Below are positions 7,205 through 64,000 of a stretch of 64,000 nt of DNA, one piece after another. Every line of letters begins with the position of its first letter. Position 1 is the first letter of the stretch. Both the position numbers and the translations under genes were made by a program. This DNA comes from an uncultured archaeon. GTDB taxonomy: Archaea; Thermoproteota; Nitrososphaeria_A; Caldarchaeales; Wolframiiraptoraceae. The stretch is taken from contig CALKCF010000002.1 of the NCBI GenBank assembly GCA_938083505.1, forward strand, positions 1-64,000. Direction: 5' to 3'. The notes below the pieces were generated by a model, which saw only the letters and a list, made by a program, of their open reading frames with translations, ran no database searches and had not been told where the DNA came from.

Positions 7205-7717
7205 ATGCAAGTAAGGTTGCTCAACAAGAAAGAGAAGCAAGAAGTCATTGCATATATCAGTTCCGAATTTCCTAACATAAAGCTCGAGCTAAGTCCAAAA
7301 ACCGTTGTTAGGAAAGTAAAGAACGAGAAAACCACCCTCTATATTTTGGAGGGGCTGGCAGCCTTCGTGAAGTTTAATGAAATGTTCCTGCCTATTCTGG
7401 TCGAGTCGCTCAATAAGAACGTACTCGATCGTATGCCGAGCGTTGTTGTTGACATGGGAGCCATACCATACATCGCTAATGGCGCGGACGTTATGAGGCC
7501 CGGTATAGTCACGCTTGAAGGTAAGTTTGAAAAAGATGATCTAGTCATCGTTAGGGATGAAAAACACAGAAAGCCGATAGCCGTCGGCAAGGCTTTAGAG
7601 AGCTCAGAAAACATAATGAAAGCAGAAAAAGGAAAGGTCGTGACGAACTTACATTATGTCGGCGATAAAATATGGAAGTTTTGTGTGGAAGCACTGTCGC
7701 GCTACCAGAACATATAA
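7205..7717 (+). CDS. PUA-domain RNA-binding protein (MCT-1/Tma20-like)
   Basis: VVDMGAIPYIANGADVMRPGI and KGKVV..LHYVGD. Confidence 0.9.
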   Translation: MQVRLLNKKEKQEVIAYISSEFPNIKLELSPKTVVRKVKNEKTTLYILEGLAAFVKFNEMFLPILVESLNKNVLDRMPSVVVDMGAIPYIANGADVMRPGIVTLEGKFEKDDLVIVRDEKHRKPIAVGKALESSENIMKAEKGKVVTNLHYVGDKIWKFCVEALSRYQNI

Positions 7718-7751
7718 AAAGCGTTATTCAATCTTAAAGCGCAGAGCACGC

Positions 7752-9791
7752 TCAGAGCATGAGCAAACCTATGAAGATCGGGACGAAGACTATCGAGACC
7801 GTGTTGAGTAACTTTATCACGGTGTTCAGCGCAGGACCGGCAGTATCCTTGTATGGGTCGCCGACTAGGTCTCCAGCGACCGCTACGGCATGCTGGGACG
7901 TCTTCTTCAGACCTAGCACTTCTAAATACTTCTTGGCGTTATCCCAAGCCGCGCCTGAATTGGCCATTTGGTATGCAAGGTAAAGTCCGGACGCTACTGA
8001 GCCTGTTAGAAGACCCGTTACAGCCACGGGACCCAAAACGAGTCCGATTATTATTGGTGTTATTATAACTATGAGCGCCGGTGTGAACAGTTGTCTGAGC
8101 GATTCCCTTGTCGCTATGTCTATGCACTTCGCGTAGTCCGGTTTTGTCTTACCTTCAAGTATACCCTTAATCTCCCTGAATTGTCTTCTGACTTCTTCGA
8201 CGATCGATGAGGCAACCACACTGACGCTCCTCAGAAGGTAGCTCGAGACGTAGAACGGCAACAAGGCACCTATGAGGAGGCCGATTATCAGAGCAGGGTT
8301 TGTTAATGTATAGACGAATTCTTTTCCATACAACAAGTTACCAGGTGTGGAGGCAAGGGTCCAGACTTCGTGCTGGAATGCTTGAATGAGGGCTATGGCC
8401 GCAAGAGCGGCACTGGCAATGGCGAAACCTTTCGTGGTTGCCTTCGTGGTGTTACCGACAGCATCCAGCTGGTCAGTTATCTTCCTATTATCCTCACCAA
8501 GCCCACTCATCTCAACTATACCACCAGCGTTGTCGCTGATTGGCCCAAAACTATCTATGCTCAACACTATGCCGCTCAGCGATAGCATAGTAGCAGTCGT
8601 TATGGCGGTCGAATAGATGCCCATTAGGGGCTTACTGGTTATCGCAGATACCAAGAAGTAGGATATTGCCATGAACACGACTATGACCATTGCCATCGGA
8701 AACGTGGACCTCAGACCAGTAGCTATGCCCGTGAGTATGTTTGCTGAATGGCCCACCTTAGTCGATTCGGCAACTTCCTGGACCGGTTTGTAGTTGTAGC
8801 TGGTGTAGTAGTCAGTTATCTTCTGTATTATGGGAACTATGATCGCGCCCAGCAACGTGGATACAAAGAAAGCGTATGCTACCTCATTCCAACCAAAGGT
8901 GAATGTGGAAATGAAGAAGTTTAGAATAACGGTTATCAAGGCAGCGACCGCGAAGGACAACGTCAATGGTCTCATGGGAGAAGTAACGTTCCTCGACGTG
9001 ACGGTTAAGGTACCTATTAGCGAGGCCAATAGGCCTGCCGCTCCTATCATGAGCGGGAACGCAACAAGCTCTACACTACCTATGAGTGAGCCTAAAAGCA
9101 TCGCCGCTAACATAGTTACGATATACGATTCGTAGATGTCGCTCCCCATACCGGCTGCATCACCTATGTTGTCACCAACATTATCTGCTATCACGGCCGG
9201 GTTTCTTGGGTCGTCTTCAGGTATTCCCGCCTCAACCTTTCCGACCAGGTCAGCACCCAAGTCTGCTGCTTTTGTGTAGATCCCACCACCAATTCTTATG
9301 AACAGTGCTATCAAGCTTGCACCGACACCGACGCCCGCTATCGCTATCGGGTTCGGATAGAGGGCGTAAAGTAATGTAACGGCTATGAGGGCGGCTGCTG
9401 TTATCGTCAAGCCAGCCACAGCACCTCCTCTATAAGCCACGGAAAGTGTATGGCCGAGACCTTTTTCGGTCGCGTGTGCTGCCCTTGGTGCTGCGCTAAT
9501 GGTAGTCAGTATCGCGATTATTCCCGCTGCTGCCGAGAGTGCTGCCCCGATTGCGAACGCCATGGCATTGGTGTATCCGGACGCGAGACCTATAACTATT
9601 GCCAAGATTATTGCGATTGGCAGAATTGTTACGTATTCCCTTTTAATGAATGCGAGGGCTCCGGTTTTAACCGCGCTCGATATATTGCGCATCGTCTCGT
9701 TTCCCGGACTCTGTTTAAGCATCCATACAGTAAAGGCCATAGCTGCACAGAGCGCCACTATTGAGGCCGATACCGGTAAGAGCCAGAACAT
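7752..9791 (-). CDS. hppA: membrane H+-translocating pyrophosphatase, K+-independent type
   Basis: GGGIYTKAADLGADLVGKVE, DNVGDNIGD, GNTTKA, GDPYKDT. Confidence 0.95.
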   Translation of the reverse strand: MFWLLPVSASIVALCAAMAFTVWMLKQSPGNETMRNISSAVKTGALAFIKREYVTILPIAIILAIVIGLASGYTNAMAFAIGAALSAAAGIIAILTTISAAPRAAHATEKGLGHTLSVAYRGGAVAGLTITAAALIAVTLLYALYPNPIAIAGVGVGASLIALFIRIGGGIYTKAADLGADLVGKVEAGIPEDDPRNPAVIADNVGDNIGDAAGMGSDIYESYIVTMLAAMLLGSLIGSVELVAFPLMIGAAGLLASLIGTLTVTSRNVTSPMRPLTLSFAVAALITVILNFFISTFTFGWNEVAYAFFVSTLLGAIIVPIIQKITDYYTSYNYKPVQEVAESTKVGHSANILTGIATGLRSTFPMAMVIVVFMAISYFLVSAITSKPLMGIYSTAITTATMLSLSGIVLSIDSFGPISDNAGGIVEMSGLGEDNRKITDQLDAVGNTTKATTKGFAIASAALAAIALIQAFQHEVWTLASTPGNLLYGKEFVYTLTNPALIIGLLIGALLPFYVSSYLLRSVSVVASSIVEEVRRQFREIKGILEGKTKPDYAKCIDIATRESLRQLFTPALIVIITPIIIGLVLGPVAVTGLLTGSVASGLYLAYQMANSGAAWDNAKKYLEVLGLKKTSQHAVAVAGDLVGDPYKDTAGPALNTVIKLLNTVSIVFVPIFIGLLML

Positions 9792-57814: not shown

Positions 57815-58579
57815 ATGATCGTGACAGAAAATGTCCGTAAACTTCTTAAAGCCCACGAAGGGCTAAAACGTGAAGTTTACTTAGATATTGAGAACTCAAG
57901 CTTCGTTCTCCCAGAAGTGATTGAAGCTATGCTTCCATACTTTAACAAACGTGCTTATGTCAACCCTACGCTTACTCATAAACCGGGATGGGAAGCTTAC
58001 GACGCTATAATGGAGTCAGCCCAAACAATTGCAAGGTATTTTGGCTGTAAAAGTATCGAAGAGATCAACTTTACGCCAGGAGAGGCTGAGGCTAACAACC
58101 TTGCCTTGCTTGGTGCAGTCTCTCAAATGTGTGTAAAACGCGGAAAAATCGTGATTTCTGAGATTGAACCGTTAAGCATCATGCACGTAGCGGAAATACT
58201 TTCCAAACAAGGATTTTCAATGATTAAAGTGTCCGTGGATGGTGAGGGTTTTATAGACCTTGAAAAACTTAAAGAGGCTGTAGACGATGAAATAGTTATC
58301 GCGAGCTTCTCCGCTGTTAACTGTGAAGGTGAGGCATTAACCATTGAGTTAAGCTTGAACAGTGTGTACGTTTCAAGCGGAAGCGCTTGCACAAGACACT
58401 TATTGCAACCAAGCCATGTGTTAGTCGCCATAGGTAGAAAATTTGAGGAAGCTCACGGCAGCATCCTCATGAAAGCTACACGTATACGCACAGAGGCGGA
58501 TATAGACTATGTATTTGAAGTTTTGTCAAAGGTCGTTGAAAGACTTAGAGGAATAACGGGCTCAATGGTGGCCGAGTAG
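57815..58579 (+). CDS. iscS: IscS/NifS-like protein with large in-frame internal deletion
   Basis: VYLD, FTPG..EANN, then SAVN fused directly to CEGEAL..SSGSAC; no HxDA or SxHK PLP motifs. Confidence 0.8.
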   Translation: MIVTENVRKLLKAHEGLKREVYLDIENSSFVLPEVIEAMLPYFNKRAYVNPTLTHKPGWEAYDAIMESAQTIARYFGCKSIEEINFTPGEAEANNLALLGAVSQMCVKRGKIVISEIEPLSIMHVAEILSKQGFSMIKVSVDGEGFIDLEKLKEAVDDEIVIASFSAVNCEGEALTIELSLNSVYVSSGSACTRHLLQPSHVLVAIGRKFEEAHGSILMKATRIRTEADIDYVFEVLSKVVERLRGITGSMVAE

Positions 58580-58581
58580 TC

Positions 58582-59043
58582 TTGTCGCGCTTCCCCCTAC
58601 CCTACACTCAAAAAATCTTGGATCTGTTTAGGAATCCAAAGAATTTAGGGAAAATGAAGGACGCCACTGTTTCAGCGGTAGCCGGCAACCCTCAATGCGG
58701 AGATATGATAACTTTCTATTTGAAGATCAACGAGCAAGACGTGAGTGAAAAGTCGACATTTGAAAGAACTGAAAAAATTAATCAGATGAAGCTTGAAGAT
58801 GCTTGGAAAATTTTGTGGAAGAGCATTGTCGAAGAGTTGGGAGGGCTGCCGGCTGTCAAATTTCACTATGGCATATTGGCTGTTGGAGCTTTGAGACGGG
58901 CTATTCGCGCTTCCTACAAAATGCGGCAACAAATTCCAGAGTGGCTACCGAAAGAATTAACCTTTGAAGAAAAACAAGCATTAGAAGAGGAGCTGGCAAA
59001 AATCCTTTCGAAGAGAATGAAGATGGTAGAAGAAGGTGCTTGA
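58582..59043 (+). CDS. iscU: IscU-like scaffold with in-frame deletion and lost cysteines
   Basis: FRNPKNLG and GNPQCGD kept; GC..AS segment missing; KFHY instead of KxHC. Confidence 0.8.
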   Translation: MSRFPLPYTQKILDLFRNPKNLGKMKDATVSAVAGNPQCGDMITFYLKINEQDVSEKSTFERTEKINQMKLEDAWKILWKSIVEELGGLPAVKFHYGILAVGALRRAIRASYKMRQQIPEWLPKELTFEEKQALEEELAKILSKRMKMVEEGA

Positions 59044-60284
59044 AGATGTTCAATCCCTACAAGGTTAGGGAAGACTTCCCTATATTGAAACGAAAGATAG
59101 ACGGTAATCAGATCATATACTTTGACAATGCGGCAACATCCCAAAAGCCAAGGCAGGTCATCGAAGCGATGAAAAAGTTCTACGAAGAACAAAATGCCAA
59201 CGTTCACCGCGCAGTGCATACATTATCACTGGAAGCTACGGAACTTTATGAGGAGGCCCACGAGGAGGTTGCTGAATTCATAGGCGCCAAGAGTATGGAA
59301 GAAATAATCTTTGTAAGGGGCACAACGGAGGCCATAAACCTCGTTGCCTATTCGTGGGGGCTTCACAACCTTAAACGGGGAGACGAGGTTCTCGTAACTC
59401 TCATGGAGCATCATAGCAACATAGTTCCATGGGAGATTCTCTCAGAAATAAAAGGATTTAAAGTTAAGTATTTAGATGTTAACCTGGATGGTACATTAAA
59501 CTATGAATTGTTAAAGGAAATGTTAACACCTAGAGTAAGGCTTGTCTGCGTAACCCATGTTTCGAACGTGACGGGCGTCATTAATGATGTGGAAACTGTT
59601 GCGAAACTCGCCCATGAAAATGACGCTTTAGTTCTTGTGGATGGTGCCCAATCAGTACCCCACATACCCGTAAATGTCCAAAAGTTGGACTGTGACTTCT
59701 TGGCTTTCTCCGGTCACAAGATGCTTGGGCCAACGGGGATAGGCGTCTTGTATGGTAAACGGGAAATTCTTGAAAAAATGAAGCCCTTTCATGGCGGTGG
59801 CGGAATGATTAATGAAGTTTCCTTTAACCTAGAGATGCATAGATGCAAAATCTCATGGAACGAACTACCATGGAGGTTTGAGGCTGGAACCCCGGACATA
59901 GGTGGGGCTGTTGGCTTAACGGCCGCCATAAAGTATTTGAGGACTCTTGGAATGGAAAACGTGAAGACCCACGAATACAAATTAACCGAATACACCATGA
60001 AACACTTGAAGGAATGCCCAAAAGTCACGGTTTACGGTCCTAAAGATGCTGCGCTAAAATGTGGGATAATACCATTCAATGTTGAAAGATTAGATTCTCA
60101 TGATGTAGCCTTACTTTTAAACAGTTATGGAATAATGATAAGGAGCGGGTTCCACTGCGCCCAGCCTCTTCACGAAAAGCTTAAAATTCCCTCATCCGCA
60201 AGAGTCAGCTTTTACGTTTATAATACTCAAGAAGAAGTGGACCGCTTTATCGAAGCCTTAAAGGAGATAGAAGGGGTTTTATGA
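59040..60284 (+). CDS. sufS: cysteine desulfurase SufS
   Basis: YFDNAATSQKP, EHHSN, DGAQ, SGHKMLGPTG, RSGFHCAQP. Confidence 0.96.
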   Translation: MKMFNPYKVREDFPILKRKIDGNQIIYFDNAATSQKPRQVIEAMKKFYEEQNANVHRAVHTLSLEATELYEEAHEEVAEFIGAKSMEEIIFVRGTTEAINLVAYSWGLHNLKRGDEVLVTLMEHHSNIVPWEILSEIKGFKVKYLDVNLDGTLNYELLKEMLTPRVRLVCVTHVSNVTGVINDVETVAKLAHENDALVLVDGAQSVPHIPVNVQKLDCDFLAFSGHKMLGPTGIGVLYGKREILEKMKPFHGGGGMINEVSFNLEMHRCKISWNELPWRFEAGTPDIGGAVGLTAAIKYLRTLGMENVKTHEYKLTEYTMKHLKECPKVTVYGPKDAALKCGIIPFNVERLDSHDVALLLNSYGIMIRSGFHCAQPLHEKLKIPSSARVSFYVYNTQEEVDRFIEALKEIEGVL

Positions 60285-61660: not shown

Positions 61661-62036
61661 TCAACCACGGTACAGTTCACATGTTTCCGGTAACGTGATG
61701 AACCGTTTATGTATATCACATACCACATCTTCTCTCCTTAAAATTTTGCATACTTCGCAAAATTTCAGCATAGCTTCAACTGATGAAAGGTTATGTGCCA
61801 CTATGCCTGCTGCAATTTGATCGGCCAGGGAACGGACGGGGTCTATGGACTCTAACTGTTTTAGTATTTTCACCCCTCTTTGTAAAGATATTAACTTATT
61901 GCCGTTTGGGTTATTCCTATTTTTTTGTTATAGTTACTTGTGAGAAAATGTATTTTTTATTAAATTAATTCTTGGCTATTAGAGACCTGAACCCGGGAAG
62001 TATTAGCTTTACAACGGCCTTGCAAGGTGCTCTCAA
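61661..62036 (-). pseudogene. HTH regulator with C-terminal Cys/His motif (COG2522-like)
   Basis: TTG at 62036 RAPCKAVVKLILPGFRSLIAK; shifted FSQ..KKIGITQTAIS*YL; C-term FCEVC..CDIH..C. Confidence 0.75.
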
Positions 62037-62165
62037 TATGGATAACTCTAAAATCTTTATCTATATAAAGTGCAACAGATAAACTCATTTCCTTGTTTTT
62101 AGAAGTGTGGGTAACTCAACAAGTTGTGCACTTACACTTATATTCTAAAGTTTATAACGAAAACA

Positions 62166-62396
62166 TTAACACCTCATAACGAAAACACGCCAGTTTTCGT
62201 TATCGTCCGTTTCAACTTTAATAACTTTAACATTCAATTCCCTTGCAGCCTTAATTATATCATCTCTTGATGGTTTATGTGTTCCCTTCACCACTAATAT
62301 CTCTCCGTGTTCAAGGTTATCTACACTTCTCCTAAACTTTATCAGAGGTACAGGACAGATATCGCCGGATGTATCTAAAATTTTGTACTTCTCCAT
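62166..62396 (-). CDS. tusA: TusA/SirA sulfur carrier
   Basis: LDTSGDICPVP motif, 76 aa. Confidence 0.92.
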   Translation of the reverse strand: MEKYKILDTSGDICPVPLIKFRRSVDNLEHGEILVVKGTHKPSRDDIIKAARELNVKVIKVETDDNENWRVFVMRC

Positions 62397-62398
62397 AA

Positions 62399-63562
62399 TT
62401 AATTGCCCTCCTTATGGCTGAAATTCGAGCATTTTACAGCCTTCATTAAAGTTTCGACTAACATTACCTTTCCTGTTCTTAGGTTCAACACATGCTTTTC
62501 TCTTTCCTCCTGCGCTTTTGCTTTAAGCTCTTCAAATTCTTTGTAATGTTCTTTAAATTCCACACCTGTGATACCTCTTAAGTGCCTCCGCAAAAACTCT
62601 CCATAATTTTCGCATGAGTCAGGGATGATAGTAACAACCACTCCTCTTCTTCCTTCATTGTTTAATCTTTCAGCAATTTTTAGGGCTCCAAAAAAATTGG
62701 TACCGCTCGAAATCCCTGCAGGGATGTCCGCGTTCCAAAGCGCTAACATTGCGTTATATGCATCTTTATCGGTGACCTCCATTATCTCATCACATACTGT
62801 TTTTGCTTCTTTGAAAAAATTTGATGCACCTAGCTCGTCTTTACTCCTAAGTCCAAGCTGATGGTGACCCTCTTCAGGAATAAGCCCTACAAATCTTATA
62901 CCTTCTACGTTTTGTCTCAGCCAATTTGCGCACCCAATCATGGTTCCGCACGTTCCAAGAGCAATAACGAAATGTGTCATTTCTCCAGCAGTTTGATGAT
63001 ATATTTCTGGTGCTGTTGTTAAAAAGTGAGATAGCGGATTGCCAATGTCGTCATATTGGTCGAAATTGATCACCTCGGGGTCTATTTTTTCTACATACCT
63101 GGCCGCTGCTATGGCTTCGCCCCTTTTAGCTGCTACTGTAGGGCAGTATTTGTCAGAGAACGTTTCGATTTTTGTCTTATTCTTAATCAATTTCGTAATT
63201 AGCCATTCATTTTCTTTAACAGTATTTTCGGACATGTAAACTGTGAAATCAAACTTCTCCATCAAAAGAAAAGAACCAGCTAGTCCAAAATTTCCGGAAG
63301 TTGCTGTAACAACTTTTCTTTTCCCATCTAATTTCCCTTCATGTAATTTTAGGTAATACATTGTGGCAAAAGGTCTGGCCTTTACTGATTCCCCAAAATT
63401 CGTATACTCCAACTTTGCATATATGGGAACTTCTTTGTCGAATGGGTTTATAGTTCGGGGTATGCGTATAAGTGGAGTAAATCCTATTCCTAACTCTTTT
63501 AACCAGGAATAAAAATGACGGAGGGTGAACTTTTTACTAACTGTTAGGATTTCGTTCAGCAT
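62399..63562 (-). CDS. PLP-dependent cysteine-synthase-family enzyme (atypical)
   Basis: GFTPL, KLEYTNFGESVKAR, TSGNFG, DQY..N..H..TTAPEI, GTCGT, GISSG, PDS. Confidence 0.88.
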   Translation of the reverse strand: MLNEILTVSKKFTLRHFYSWLKELGIGFTPLIRIPRTINPFDKEVPIYAKLEYTNFGESVKARPFATMYYLKLHEGKLDGKRKVVTATSGNFGLAGSFLLMEKFDFTVYMSENTVKENEWLITKLIKNKTKIETFSDKYCPTVAAKRGEAIAAARYVEKIDPEVINFDQYDDIGNPLSHFLTTAPEIYHQTAGEMTHFVIALGTCGTMIGCANWLRQNVEGIRFVGLIPEEGHHQLGLRSKDELGASNFFKEAKTVCDEIMEVTDKDAYNAMLALWNADIPAGISSGTNFFGALKIAERLNNEGRRGVVVTIIPDSCENYGEFLRRHLRGITGVEFKEHYKEFEELKAKAQEEREKHVLNLRTGKVMLVETLMKAVKCSNFSHKEGN

Positions 63563-63578
63563 GGTATCATCCCTACTG

Positions 63579-63998
63579 TTAGTCTTTCTGAGGAGGACAA
63601 GTTTCGTTTAGATCCGTGTTTAACATATAATCTGTTGGGATTTGTCTGCAGAATCTCAGAATCATGTTAGCTACAATCATGGATTTTGAAGCGAACCTTG
63701 GCCTGCGATACACCATACTAAGAGGTTCTACTTTGAGCTGGCGGTTCAAAAAAGCGGCGGTTTCACTAAGCTTTTCTAAAAAGATCTCTTTAATAACAGA
63801 GTAACTGCTACTTATAGTAAAGTCGATTTTTTCAGCGGGTGGTTCTGTTAGGATTTTAAAATTTTTCACAACACCTTTGTCCAGTTGAATGAAGAGCGTT
63901 ATTTTTTCGCTGGAGTATAGCTCTCGCAATTTTGGAGGAATGTCTGTAATAACGTATGCAAGATTTAAACTGTAGCCGGAGGTGAGTCTATTAAATTC
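63579..63998 (-). CDS. SCP2 sterol-carrier-like protein (5' end outside window)
   Basis: DFTISSSY....IF..L....AFLNRQLKVE; frame open to the window edge. Confidence 0.65.
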   Translation of the reverse strand, partial: EFNRLTSGYSLNLAYVITDIPPKLRELYSSEKITLFIQLDKGVVKNFKILTEPPAEKIDFTISSSYSVIKEIFLEKLSETAAFLNRQLKVEPLSMVYRRPRFASKSMIVANMILRFCRQIPTDYMLNTDLNETCPPQKD

Positions 63999-64000
63999 CT

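Follow-up and report, generated by a model that had tools for sequence, protein, structure and literature searches.

How does an archaeal enzyme of the CysM type obtain its sulfur when its gene stands immediately upstream of one for a TusA-family sulfur carrier? The question is raised by the end of the window analysed here, a 64,000-nucleotide (nt) stretch (contig C2:1-64000; CALKCF010000002.1) of the 1.15-Mb genome of an uncultured Wolframiiraptoraceae archaeon (G000; assembly GCA_938083505.1; 10 contigs, rated 98.5% complete), where a CysM-like enzyme dependent on pyridoxal 5'-phosphate (PLP) and a TusA close an operon of five co-directional minus-strand genes. The pairing suggests an undescribed carrier-fed route to cysteine, and we give about an even chance to the more specific proposal, drawn from sequence comparisons, that the enzyme is a TusA-fed, probably O-phosphoserine-using cysteine synthase. 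The window end contains the last three operon genes and the other two lie just past position 64000, where positions are given as contig C2 coordinates (coordinate of locus L002 + 61000). In order of transcription, the genes are:

Contig C2 64524-65051, minus strand: hemerythrin-like protein, about 175 aa, first operon gene (PF01814, 34.4 bits against a cut-off of 25.3).
Contig C2 64099-64524, minus strand: DsrE-like protein, 141 aa (PF02635, 36 bits against 22.7).
63579 to beyond the window, minus strand: SCP2-like protein, likely start at 64082 (167 aa), longest open reading frame (ORF) from 64121 (PF02036, 25.4 bits against 21.3).
62399-63562, minus strand: CysM-like fold-type II PLP enzyme, 387 aa (PF00291, PALP, 126 bits).
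62166-62396, minus strand: TusA-family sulfur carrier, 76 aa, last operon gene (PF01206, 60.3 bits against 28.6).

The intergenic gaps, in the same order, are -1, 16, 16 and 2 nt. An earlier note made from the window alone had described an operon of three genes; its gaps of 16 nt (SCP2/PLP enzyme) and 2 nt (PLP enzyme/TusA) were borne out, whereas reading past the window end raised the number of genes to five. The operon consists of two independently conserved modules, one formed by the PLP enzyme and TusA, the other by the hemerythrin-like, DsrE-like and SCP2-like genes.

The proposition that the PLP enzyme is atypical rather than an ordinary CysK or CysM held up well. Its NCBIfam scores were 150.2 bits for cysKM (TIGR01136; cut-off 344), 148.5 for cysM (394) and 121 for cysK (351), and in the tree a branch of 0.66 with a Shimodaira–Hasegawa-like approximate likelihood ratio (SH-aLRT) support of 99 parts its group from ordinary CysK/M, the core clade being supported at 95. 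A homologue search among 5.8 billion proteins returned about 42 relatives of 360–410 aa, among whose labels are Bathyarchaeia, Thorarchaeota, MSBL1 and, once, 'Aenigmatarchaeota'; E-values then jumped from 1e-64 to 1e-28 with nothing in between, and ordinary cysteine synthases started only after this gap. Among 1.84 billion cluster representatives (50% identity), a profile search found only about eight clusters at 275 bits or more, and when 185,579 species genomes were scanned by pattern, six carriers emerged, five of them labelled Bathyarchaeia or Bathyarchaeota and one Thermoproteota. Judged from these searches, the clade is rare, long-branched and archaeal, residing mainly in Bathyarchaeia, Thorarchaeota and MSBL1. 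A cysteate synthase or SbnA-like function was rejected, since the respective NCBIfam models gave weak scores of 74 bits (cut-off 600) and 103 bits (cut-off 350). Among the 60 best of 104 PDB sequence matches (E up to 1e-10) there was no O-phosphoserine sulfhydrylase of the Aeropyrum type; those listed were CysM, CysK, CBS and related same-fold enzymes of cysteine metabolism. Neither the near-length homologues nor the 150 best representatives showed a fusion of the clade enzyme to TusA, in a comparison in which no search was aimed at longer proteins.

The best solved-structure sequence match is CysM of E. coli and Salmonella (PDB 2bhs, 2jc3; E 6e-29 to 1e-28, ~30% identity). The AlphaFold2 (AF2) model of the PLP enzyme (predicted local distance difference test score, pLDDT, 92.8) has CBS, CysM and CysK as its best fold matches, with template modelling (TM) scores by target length of 0.85–0.89 against CysM and CysK and 0.87–0.89 against the two CysM structures named above. 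The CysM catalytic residues are retained, namely K61 (PLP lysine), N91 (Asn loop), Q169, H179, G203-T204 (PLP-phosphate loop) and S285 (Ser at PLP N1), and R239 falls at the position of R210 in E. coli CysM, an arginine for anionic groups that contacts thiosulfate in CysM and, in the mycobacterial enzyme, the O-phosphoserine phosphate. By its residues the protein is thus a complete enzyme of the beta-replacement type, presumably passing through an aminoacrylate intermediate, that belongs to a separate clade.

The departures from CysM are as distinctive as the shared core. Every one of the motif deviations quoted in the earlier note, together with the extra loop and the C-terminal extension, was found in the sequence: SVKAR (59-63) stands in place of canonical SVKDR, TSGNFG (88-93) in place of TSGNTG and GTCGT (203-207) where CysM reads GTTGT, while a YCPTVAAKRG loop (139-148), an N-terminal extension of 22 aa and a C-terminal extension (~322-387; 65 aa), modelled by AF2 as two long helices, are additions of the clade enzyme, as is its pairing with TusA. 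The motifs and the inserted Cys-Pro loop are kept across the clade, the exception being the sequence of the extension. Invariant in the clade are F92, C140-P141 in the inserted loop, C205 within GTCGT, H233, Q235, L238, R239 and S240, joined by R354 and H357 of the C-terminal extension.

If the enzyme is carrier-fed, what ties it to TusA? We compared 11 distinct contexts of clade members from Bathyarchaeia, Thorarchaeota, MSBL1 and metagenome contigs. TusA adjoins the clade enzyme in nine of them, and Sat (ATP sulfurylase), 3'-phosphoadenosine-5'-phosphosulfate (PAPS) reductase or sulfite reductase does so in six; on one Bathyarchaeia contig (L025) the genes for PAPS reductase, Sat, sulfite reductase, TusA and the PLP enzyme follow one another on one strand. 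The MSBL1 enzyme adjoins CysRS. Ranked by identity across loci, the TusAs follow nearly the same order as the enzymes, and only the two most distant loci, both from Bathyarchaeia, swap places. The C14-P15-x-P17 motif is invariant among TusAs paired with clade enzymes, and its cysteine is the only one common to all of them. Both cysteines to which the earlier note had drawn attention, that of the CPxP motif (C14) and the terminal one, are present in the host protein; the latter is not conserved in the paired TusAs and was rejected as a resolving cysteine for that reason. Conservation of the neighbourhood was likewise found in part: the link between enzyme and TusA extends across phyla, whereas linkage to SCP2 is confined to close relatives. 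Given the former, carrier-dependent cysteine synthesis is a reasonable reading of the module.

Weak support also comes from modelling the PLP enzyme and TusA as a complex. The ipSAE of the prediction was 0.42 with 0.00 for the best control, three runs shared at least 96% of contacts, and partner pLDDT was at least 84. The mark applied to ipSAE is passed by 58 of 80 solved complexes and by 2 of 110 mismatched pairs; the range up to 0.60, in which the value falls, holds only 7 of the 80 solved complexes together with both passing mismatches.

The genome itself adds a further line of evidence. Synteny with all six same-genus genomes ends at ~46.47 kb at a tRNA and restarts at a second one:

Contig C2 65797-65873, minus strand: tRNA-Thr(GGT), right edge of the strain-specific island.

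Because synteny breaks at one tRNA and resumes at the other, the five-gene cassette lies within a strain-specific island of ~19 kb; in one same-genus genome the same two flanks are only ~2.5 kb apart. Also on the island are sufS, several genes for glycosyltransferases, and the hollowed-out iscS and iscU. The only sequencing run listed as containing the stretch, a marine metagenome DNA run that is probably the source sample (no RNA run is listed), covers cassette and core flank at an even depth of 8–12. Vertical inheritance was rejected on the distribution of the clade enzyme, which none of the six same-genus genomes yielded and which turned up, at 36% identity, in one of 400 other genomes sampled from the phylum. 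All six congeners keep an intact 326-aa CysM (330–339 bits), the host ortholog of which is split over three reading frames (contig C3:199988-200853; L019 1468-2381). The clade enzyme was therefore gained laterally in the host genome, alongside decay of cysM. A second acquired CysM-like gene (contig C8:7713-10134; L017 714-3134) encodes 452 aa, of which ~150 form an N-terminal extension, precedes a MoeB/ThiF/UbaA-like E1 gene and has no counterpart in the six congeners at E 1e-20 or better.

Several observations weigh against a TusA-fed cysteine synthase. Two clade loci, MSBL1 L007 and L027, have no TusA nearby, and gene adjacency by itself does not show direct transfer of sulfur from TusA to the enzyme; the predicted complex gives such an interaction weak support. 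At L027 and L028 an ordinary CysK/M adjoins the clade enzyme, so that the product of the latter could be something other than cysteine. Finally, the 452-aa CysM-like gene could equally have replaced the broken cysM, and since it too was acquired, the displacement is not attributable solely to the enzyme linked to TusA.

Some of the same facts bear on a plainer explanation, namely that the enzyme is a divergent but ordinary sulfide-using cysteine synthase (an O-phosphoserine or O-acetylserine sulfhydrylase) and that TusA, DsrE and the rest are co-regulated relays for other sinks such as tRNA thiolation, the molybdenum cofactor or Fe-S clusters. The retention of all CysM catalytic residues agrees with it, as do the MSBL1 and L027 members lacking an adjacent TusA, and the adjoining sulfite reductases, which normally release sulfide, would fit a plain terminal step. 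However, TusA adjoins the enzyme in most contexts, across phyla and in nearly the same order of identity; a reaction with plain sulfide would have no use for the invariant C140, C205, H233, R354 and H357 or for the extension; and on L027 and L028 an ordinary CysK/M already stands beside the clade enzyme. We regard this explanation as a serious one that is nevertheless rather unlikely.

Could the enzyme instead work in the catabolic direction, as a cysteine desulfhydrase or a persulfide-forming enzyme that loads TusA from cysteine, in parallel to a TusA-paired cysteine desulfurase? Enzymes of the CysK/CysM/CBS family are able to run beta-elimination of cysteine, a weak NCBIfam match of 40 bits to the Cds1 desulfhydrase covers residues 255-322, and cysteine desulfurase genes lie near the operon here and on the Thorarchaeota contig. 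Yet beta-elimination yields sulfide rather than sulfane sulfur, the repeated placement in sulfate-assimilation operons favours synthesis, and the one genome with a broken canonical cysM is the one that acquired the cassette, all of which makes a catabolic role improbable.

On that Thorarchaeota contig (L003), the gene next after those for the PLP enzyme and TusA, on their strand (7493-8668), encodes a cysteine-desulfurase-like class-V aminotransferase of 391 aa, and the surroundings include NifU_N, a second Aminotran_5 gene and ThiS.

Returning to synthesis by a TusA-fed enzyme, which acceptor would be used? Many anaerobic archaea are missing CysE and/or an identifiable supply of free sulfide. 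Searches of the host genome (98.5% complete) for YeeE, SepRS, ATP sulfurylase, NIR_SIR sulfite reductase and CysE (serine acetyltransferase) all came back empty. A TrpB-like gene (L018) has as neighbours ORFs that by eye resemble SerA and a class-V aminotransferase. With no CysE found, these ORFs make O-phosphoserine the probable substrate.

The closest precedent for a carrier-fed enzyme of this type is mycobacterial. In Mycobacterium tuberculosis, the CysM-CysO pair uses O-phosphoserine and sulfur carried on a small protein, CysO being a ThiS-like thiocarboxylate carrier activated by an E1 enzyme. M. tuberculosis CysM is among the PDB matches of the clade enzyme (E 7.5e-19) and offers a working analogy for a CysM-like enzyme fed by a carrier. 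In contrast to CysO, the carrier here is a TusA, which would hold sulfur on its cysteine as persulfide or thiosulfonate, and the operon contains neither ThiS nor ThiF. A separate CysM-like gene adjoins ThiF in the host genome, or ThiS-ThiF on Bathyarchaeia contigs, and the TusA-linked enzyme and the ThiS/ThiF-linked CysM are therefore distinct systems. If the proposal is right, cysteine synthesis here would be the second to depend on a protein carrier after mycobacterial CysM-CysO, with a different carrier chemistry.

Two further systems resemble parts of the cassette. CysM takes its sulfur from free sulfide or thiosulfate, and a TusA-like protein, YeeD, acts in the YeeE-YeeD (TsuA-TsuB) system of thiosulfate uptake, which feeds cysteine assimilation by a CysM-type enzyme (PMC11073785). 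The locus differs from it in that the host genome has no transporter of the YeeE family that we could find and that its TusA scores 19.5 bits against a YeeD cut-off of 147. Transfer from DsrE to TusA is documented for DsrE3A-TusA of Metallosphaera cuprina and for sHdr systems (PMC4175335, PMC11094781). Like that relay, the cassette encodes together a DsrE-like protein and a TusA with single conserved cysteines. Whereas sulfur in the known relays passes by way of Hdr-like complexes into dissimilatory oxidation, the sink here would be a PLP-dependent beta-replacement enzyme, the partners are hemerythrin-like and SCP2-like proteins, and no Hdr gene is present in the operon. Were the proposal correct, TusA and DsrE relays would gain an assimilatory role beside the dissimilatory one. 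In the literature we found neither a CysM-like enzyme paired with TusA nor the hemerythrin-DsrE-SCP2 trio described.

The trio turned out to have a distribution of its own. The full five-gene cassette occurs only in the closest relatives (L012, L013; enzymes 80–90% identical), where its flanks differ from those in the host. The SCP2-like family, with about 28 cluster representatives, always has hemerythrin-like and DsrE-like genes at its side, whether the PLP enzyme is there too or not; the trio stands without the enzyme at loci L104 and L106, and a Chloroflexi contig (L105) reads PAPS reductase, sulfite reductase, TusA, hemerythrin, DsrE and SCP2. It is found in same-genus and same-family genomes as well. 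Because these genes form a separate conserved trio, SCP2 is not core to the enzyme-TusA module, and the analysis defines a conserved hemerythrin-DsrE-SCP2 unit recurring beside sulfur genes in archaea and one Chloroflexi genome.

In the DsrE-like protein, which matches PDB 2qs7 at E 9e-22, Cys101 is the single invariant cysteine among 11 sequences. The hemerythrin-like protein has H14, H50, E54, H78, H116, E119 and C120 invariant in 10 sequences, the histidines and glutamates being putative di-iron ligands. The SCP2 model (pLDDT 84.6) has SCP2 of Thermus (TT1886) as its best PDB match, with a Foldseek E of 6e-8 and TM scores of 0.62 by model and 0.78 by target; no cysteine is conserved in the alignment of the family, and SCP2 was rejected as a persulfide carrier for that reason.

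The hemerythrin-SCP2-DsrE trio also occurs in a congener (L133 6162-8771; G042 contig C14), where it adjoins a different CysK/M-like gene, one that groups in the tree with P0120, a protein in which a GHHIQGLRN motif and a Cys-Pro loop are likewise present.

Elsewhere in the host genome (contig C1:93000-96000; L022 3038-5952), a second and older copy of the trio has decayed, together with a TusA gene carrying an in-frame TAA. The remains surround two intact genes, one for a 112-aa HTH_3/CxxC regulator and one for a ThiF/MoeB-like E1 enzyme. Arrival of the cassette on the tRNA-bounded 19-kb island coincides with decay of both the ancestral cysM and this older trio copy.

How might the two modules work together? 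TusA is common to the loci of sulfite reductases, of the trio and of the clade enzyme and therefore looks like a hub. The hemerythrin-DsrE-SCP2 proteins would form a sulfur-mobilising unit that loads TusA, and might draw on elemental sulfur (S0), polysulfide or thiosulfate; in other organisms it is an assimilatory sulfite reductase that stands in the trio's place beside TusA. TusA would then hand sulfur to the clade enzyme as persulfide or thiosulfonate rather than as free sulfide, and the enzyme would make cysteine by beta-replacement, probably on O-phosphoserine. More speculatively, the C140/C205 pair could supply the two electrons that turn sulfane sulfur into a thiol.

A bolder version of this scheme, to which we assign a low probability, would have assimilation run at the sulfane (S0) level throughout and never through free sulfide. 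TusA would be a hub loaded either by a small ferredoxin-type sulfite reductase or by the trio, its persulfide would be used by the clade enzyme to attack the aminoacrylate, and C140/C205 would act as a built-in two-electron reductant that sets cysteine free. Pick-up of sulfur from DsrAB by DsrC provides a model for the step from sulfite reductase to TusA. In that case hydrophobic S8 or polysulfane could be housed in the SCP2 pocket and activated by the di-iron protein, which has an invariant cysteine of its own.

The earlier note had pictured the origin and fate of the sulfur differently, with SufS loading TusA from cysteine and the PLP enzyme adding the sulfur to an unusual, lipid-like substrate presented by SCP2. 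The gene in question is the following:

59040-60284, plus strand: SufS cysteine desulfurase, outside the operon (TIGR01979, 586 bits against a cut-off of 475).

SufS does lie within 2 kb, being 1.9 kb from the operon and on the same island, and the SCP2 fold is real. SufS is encoded on the opposite strand, though, in a separate unit with the hollowed-out IscS and IscU. The NifS/IscS-like ORF (254 aa) matches profile positions 1-149 of 371 and a second stretch, and the IscU-like ORF (153 aa) falls far under the family cut-offs; both, in the region 57815-59043, are still open and stand directly upstream of the intact sufS. Supply of persulfide from SufS to TusA also lacks any conserved linkage, and would amount to a futile cycle for cysteine synthesis because SufS sulfur itself comes from cysteine. 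As for the substrate, SCP2 goes in most contexts with hemerythrin and DsrE rather than with the PLP enzyme, an SCP2 gene is absent beside most of the clade enzymes, and the enzyme's contacts to the amino-acid carboxylate and to PLP are CysM-like. With no conserved cysteine in the SCP2 family and the amino-acid-binding residues of CysM kept in the enzyme, nothing points to a lipid-like substrate, and we consider the scheme as a whole very improbable.

Downstream of TusA lies one further feature:

61661-61873, minus strand: 70-aa ORF, C-terminal remnant of an HTH_3/CxxC regulator (BLASTP to the intact paralogue).

This ORF has no family match in Pfam and NCBIfam scans, and aligns with residues 57-103 of the intact 112-aa regulator on contig C1 (BLASTP E 4e-6). 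Its helix-turn-helix half has been lost or frameshifted, the upstream part matching in another frame only (tblastx, two frames), and the match to the intact paralogue confirms what had been read from the window as a decayed regulator with Cys/His motifs. A regulator of the same family directly follows the MSBL1 clade enzyme (L007:7277-7657), with an E-value of 1e-23 between two members. Members of this family of small HTH_3 regulators, in which a PCE motif marks the N-terminus and CxxC the C-terminus, recur beside sulfur-relay loci, at L007:7277-7657, L022:4210-4548 and contig C2:194303-194503.

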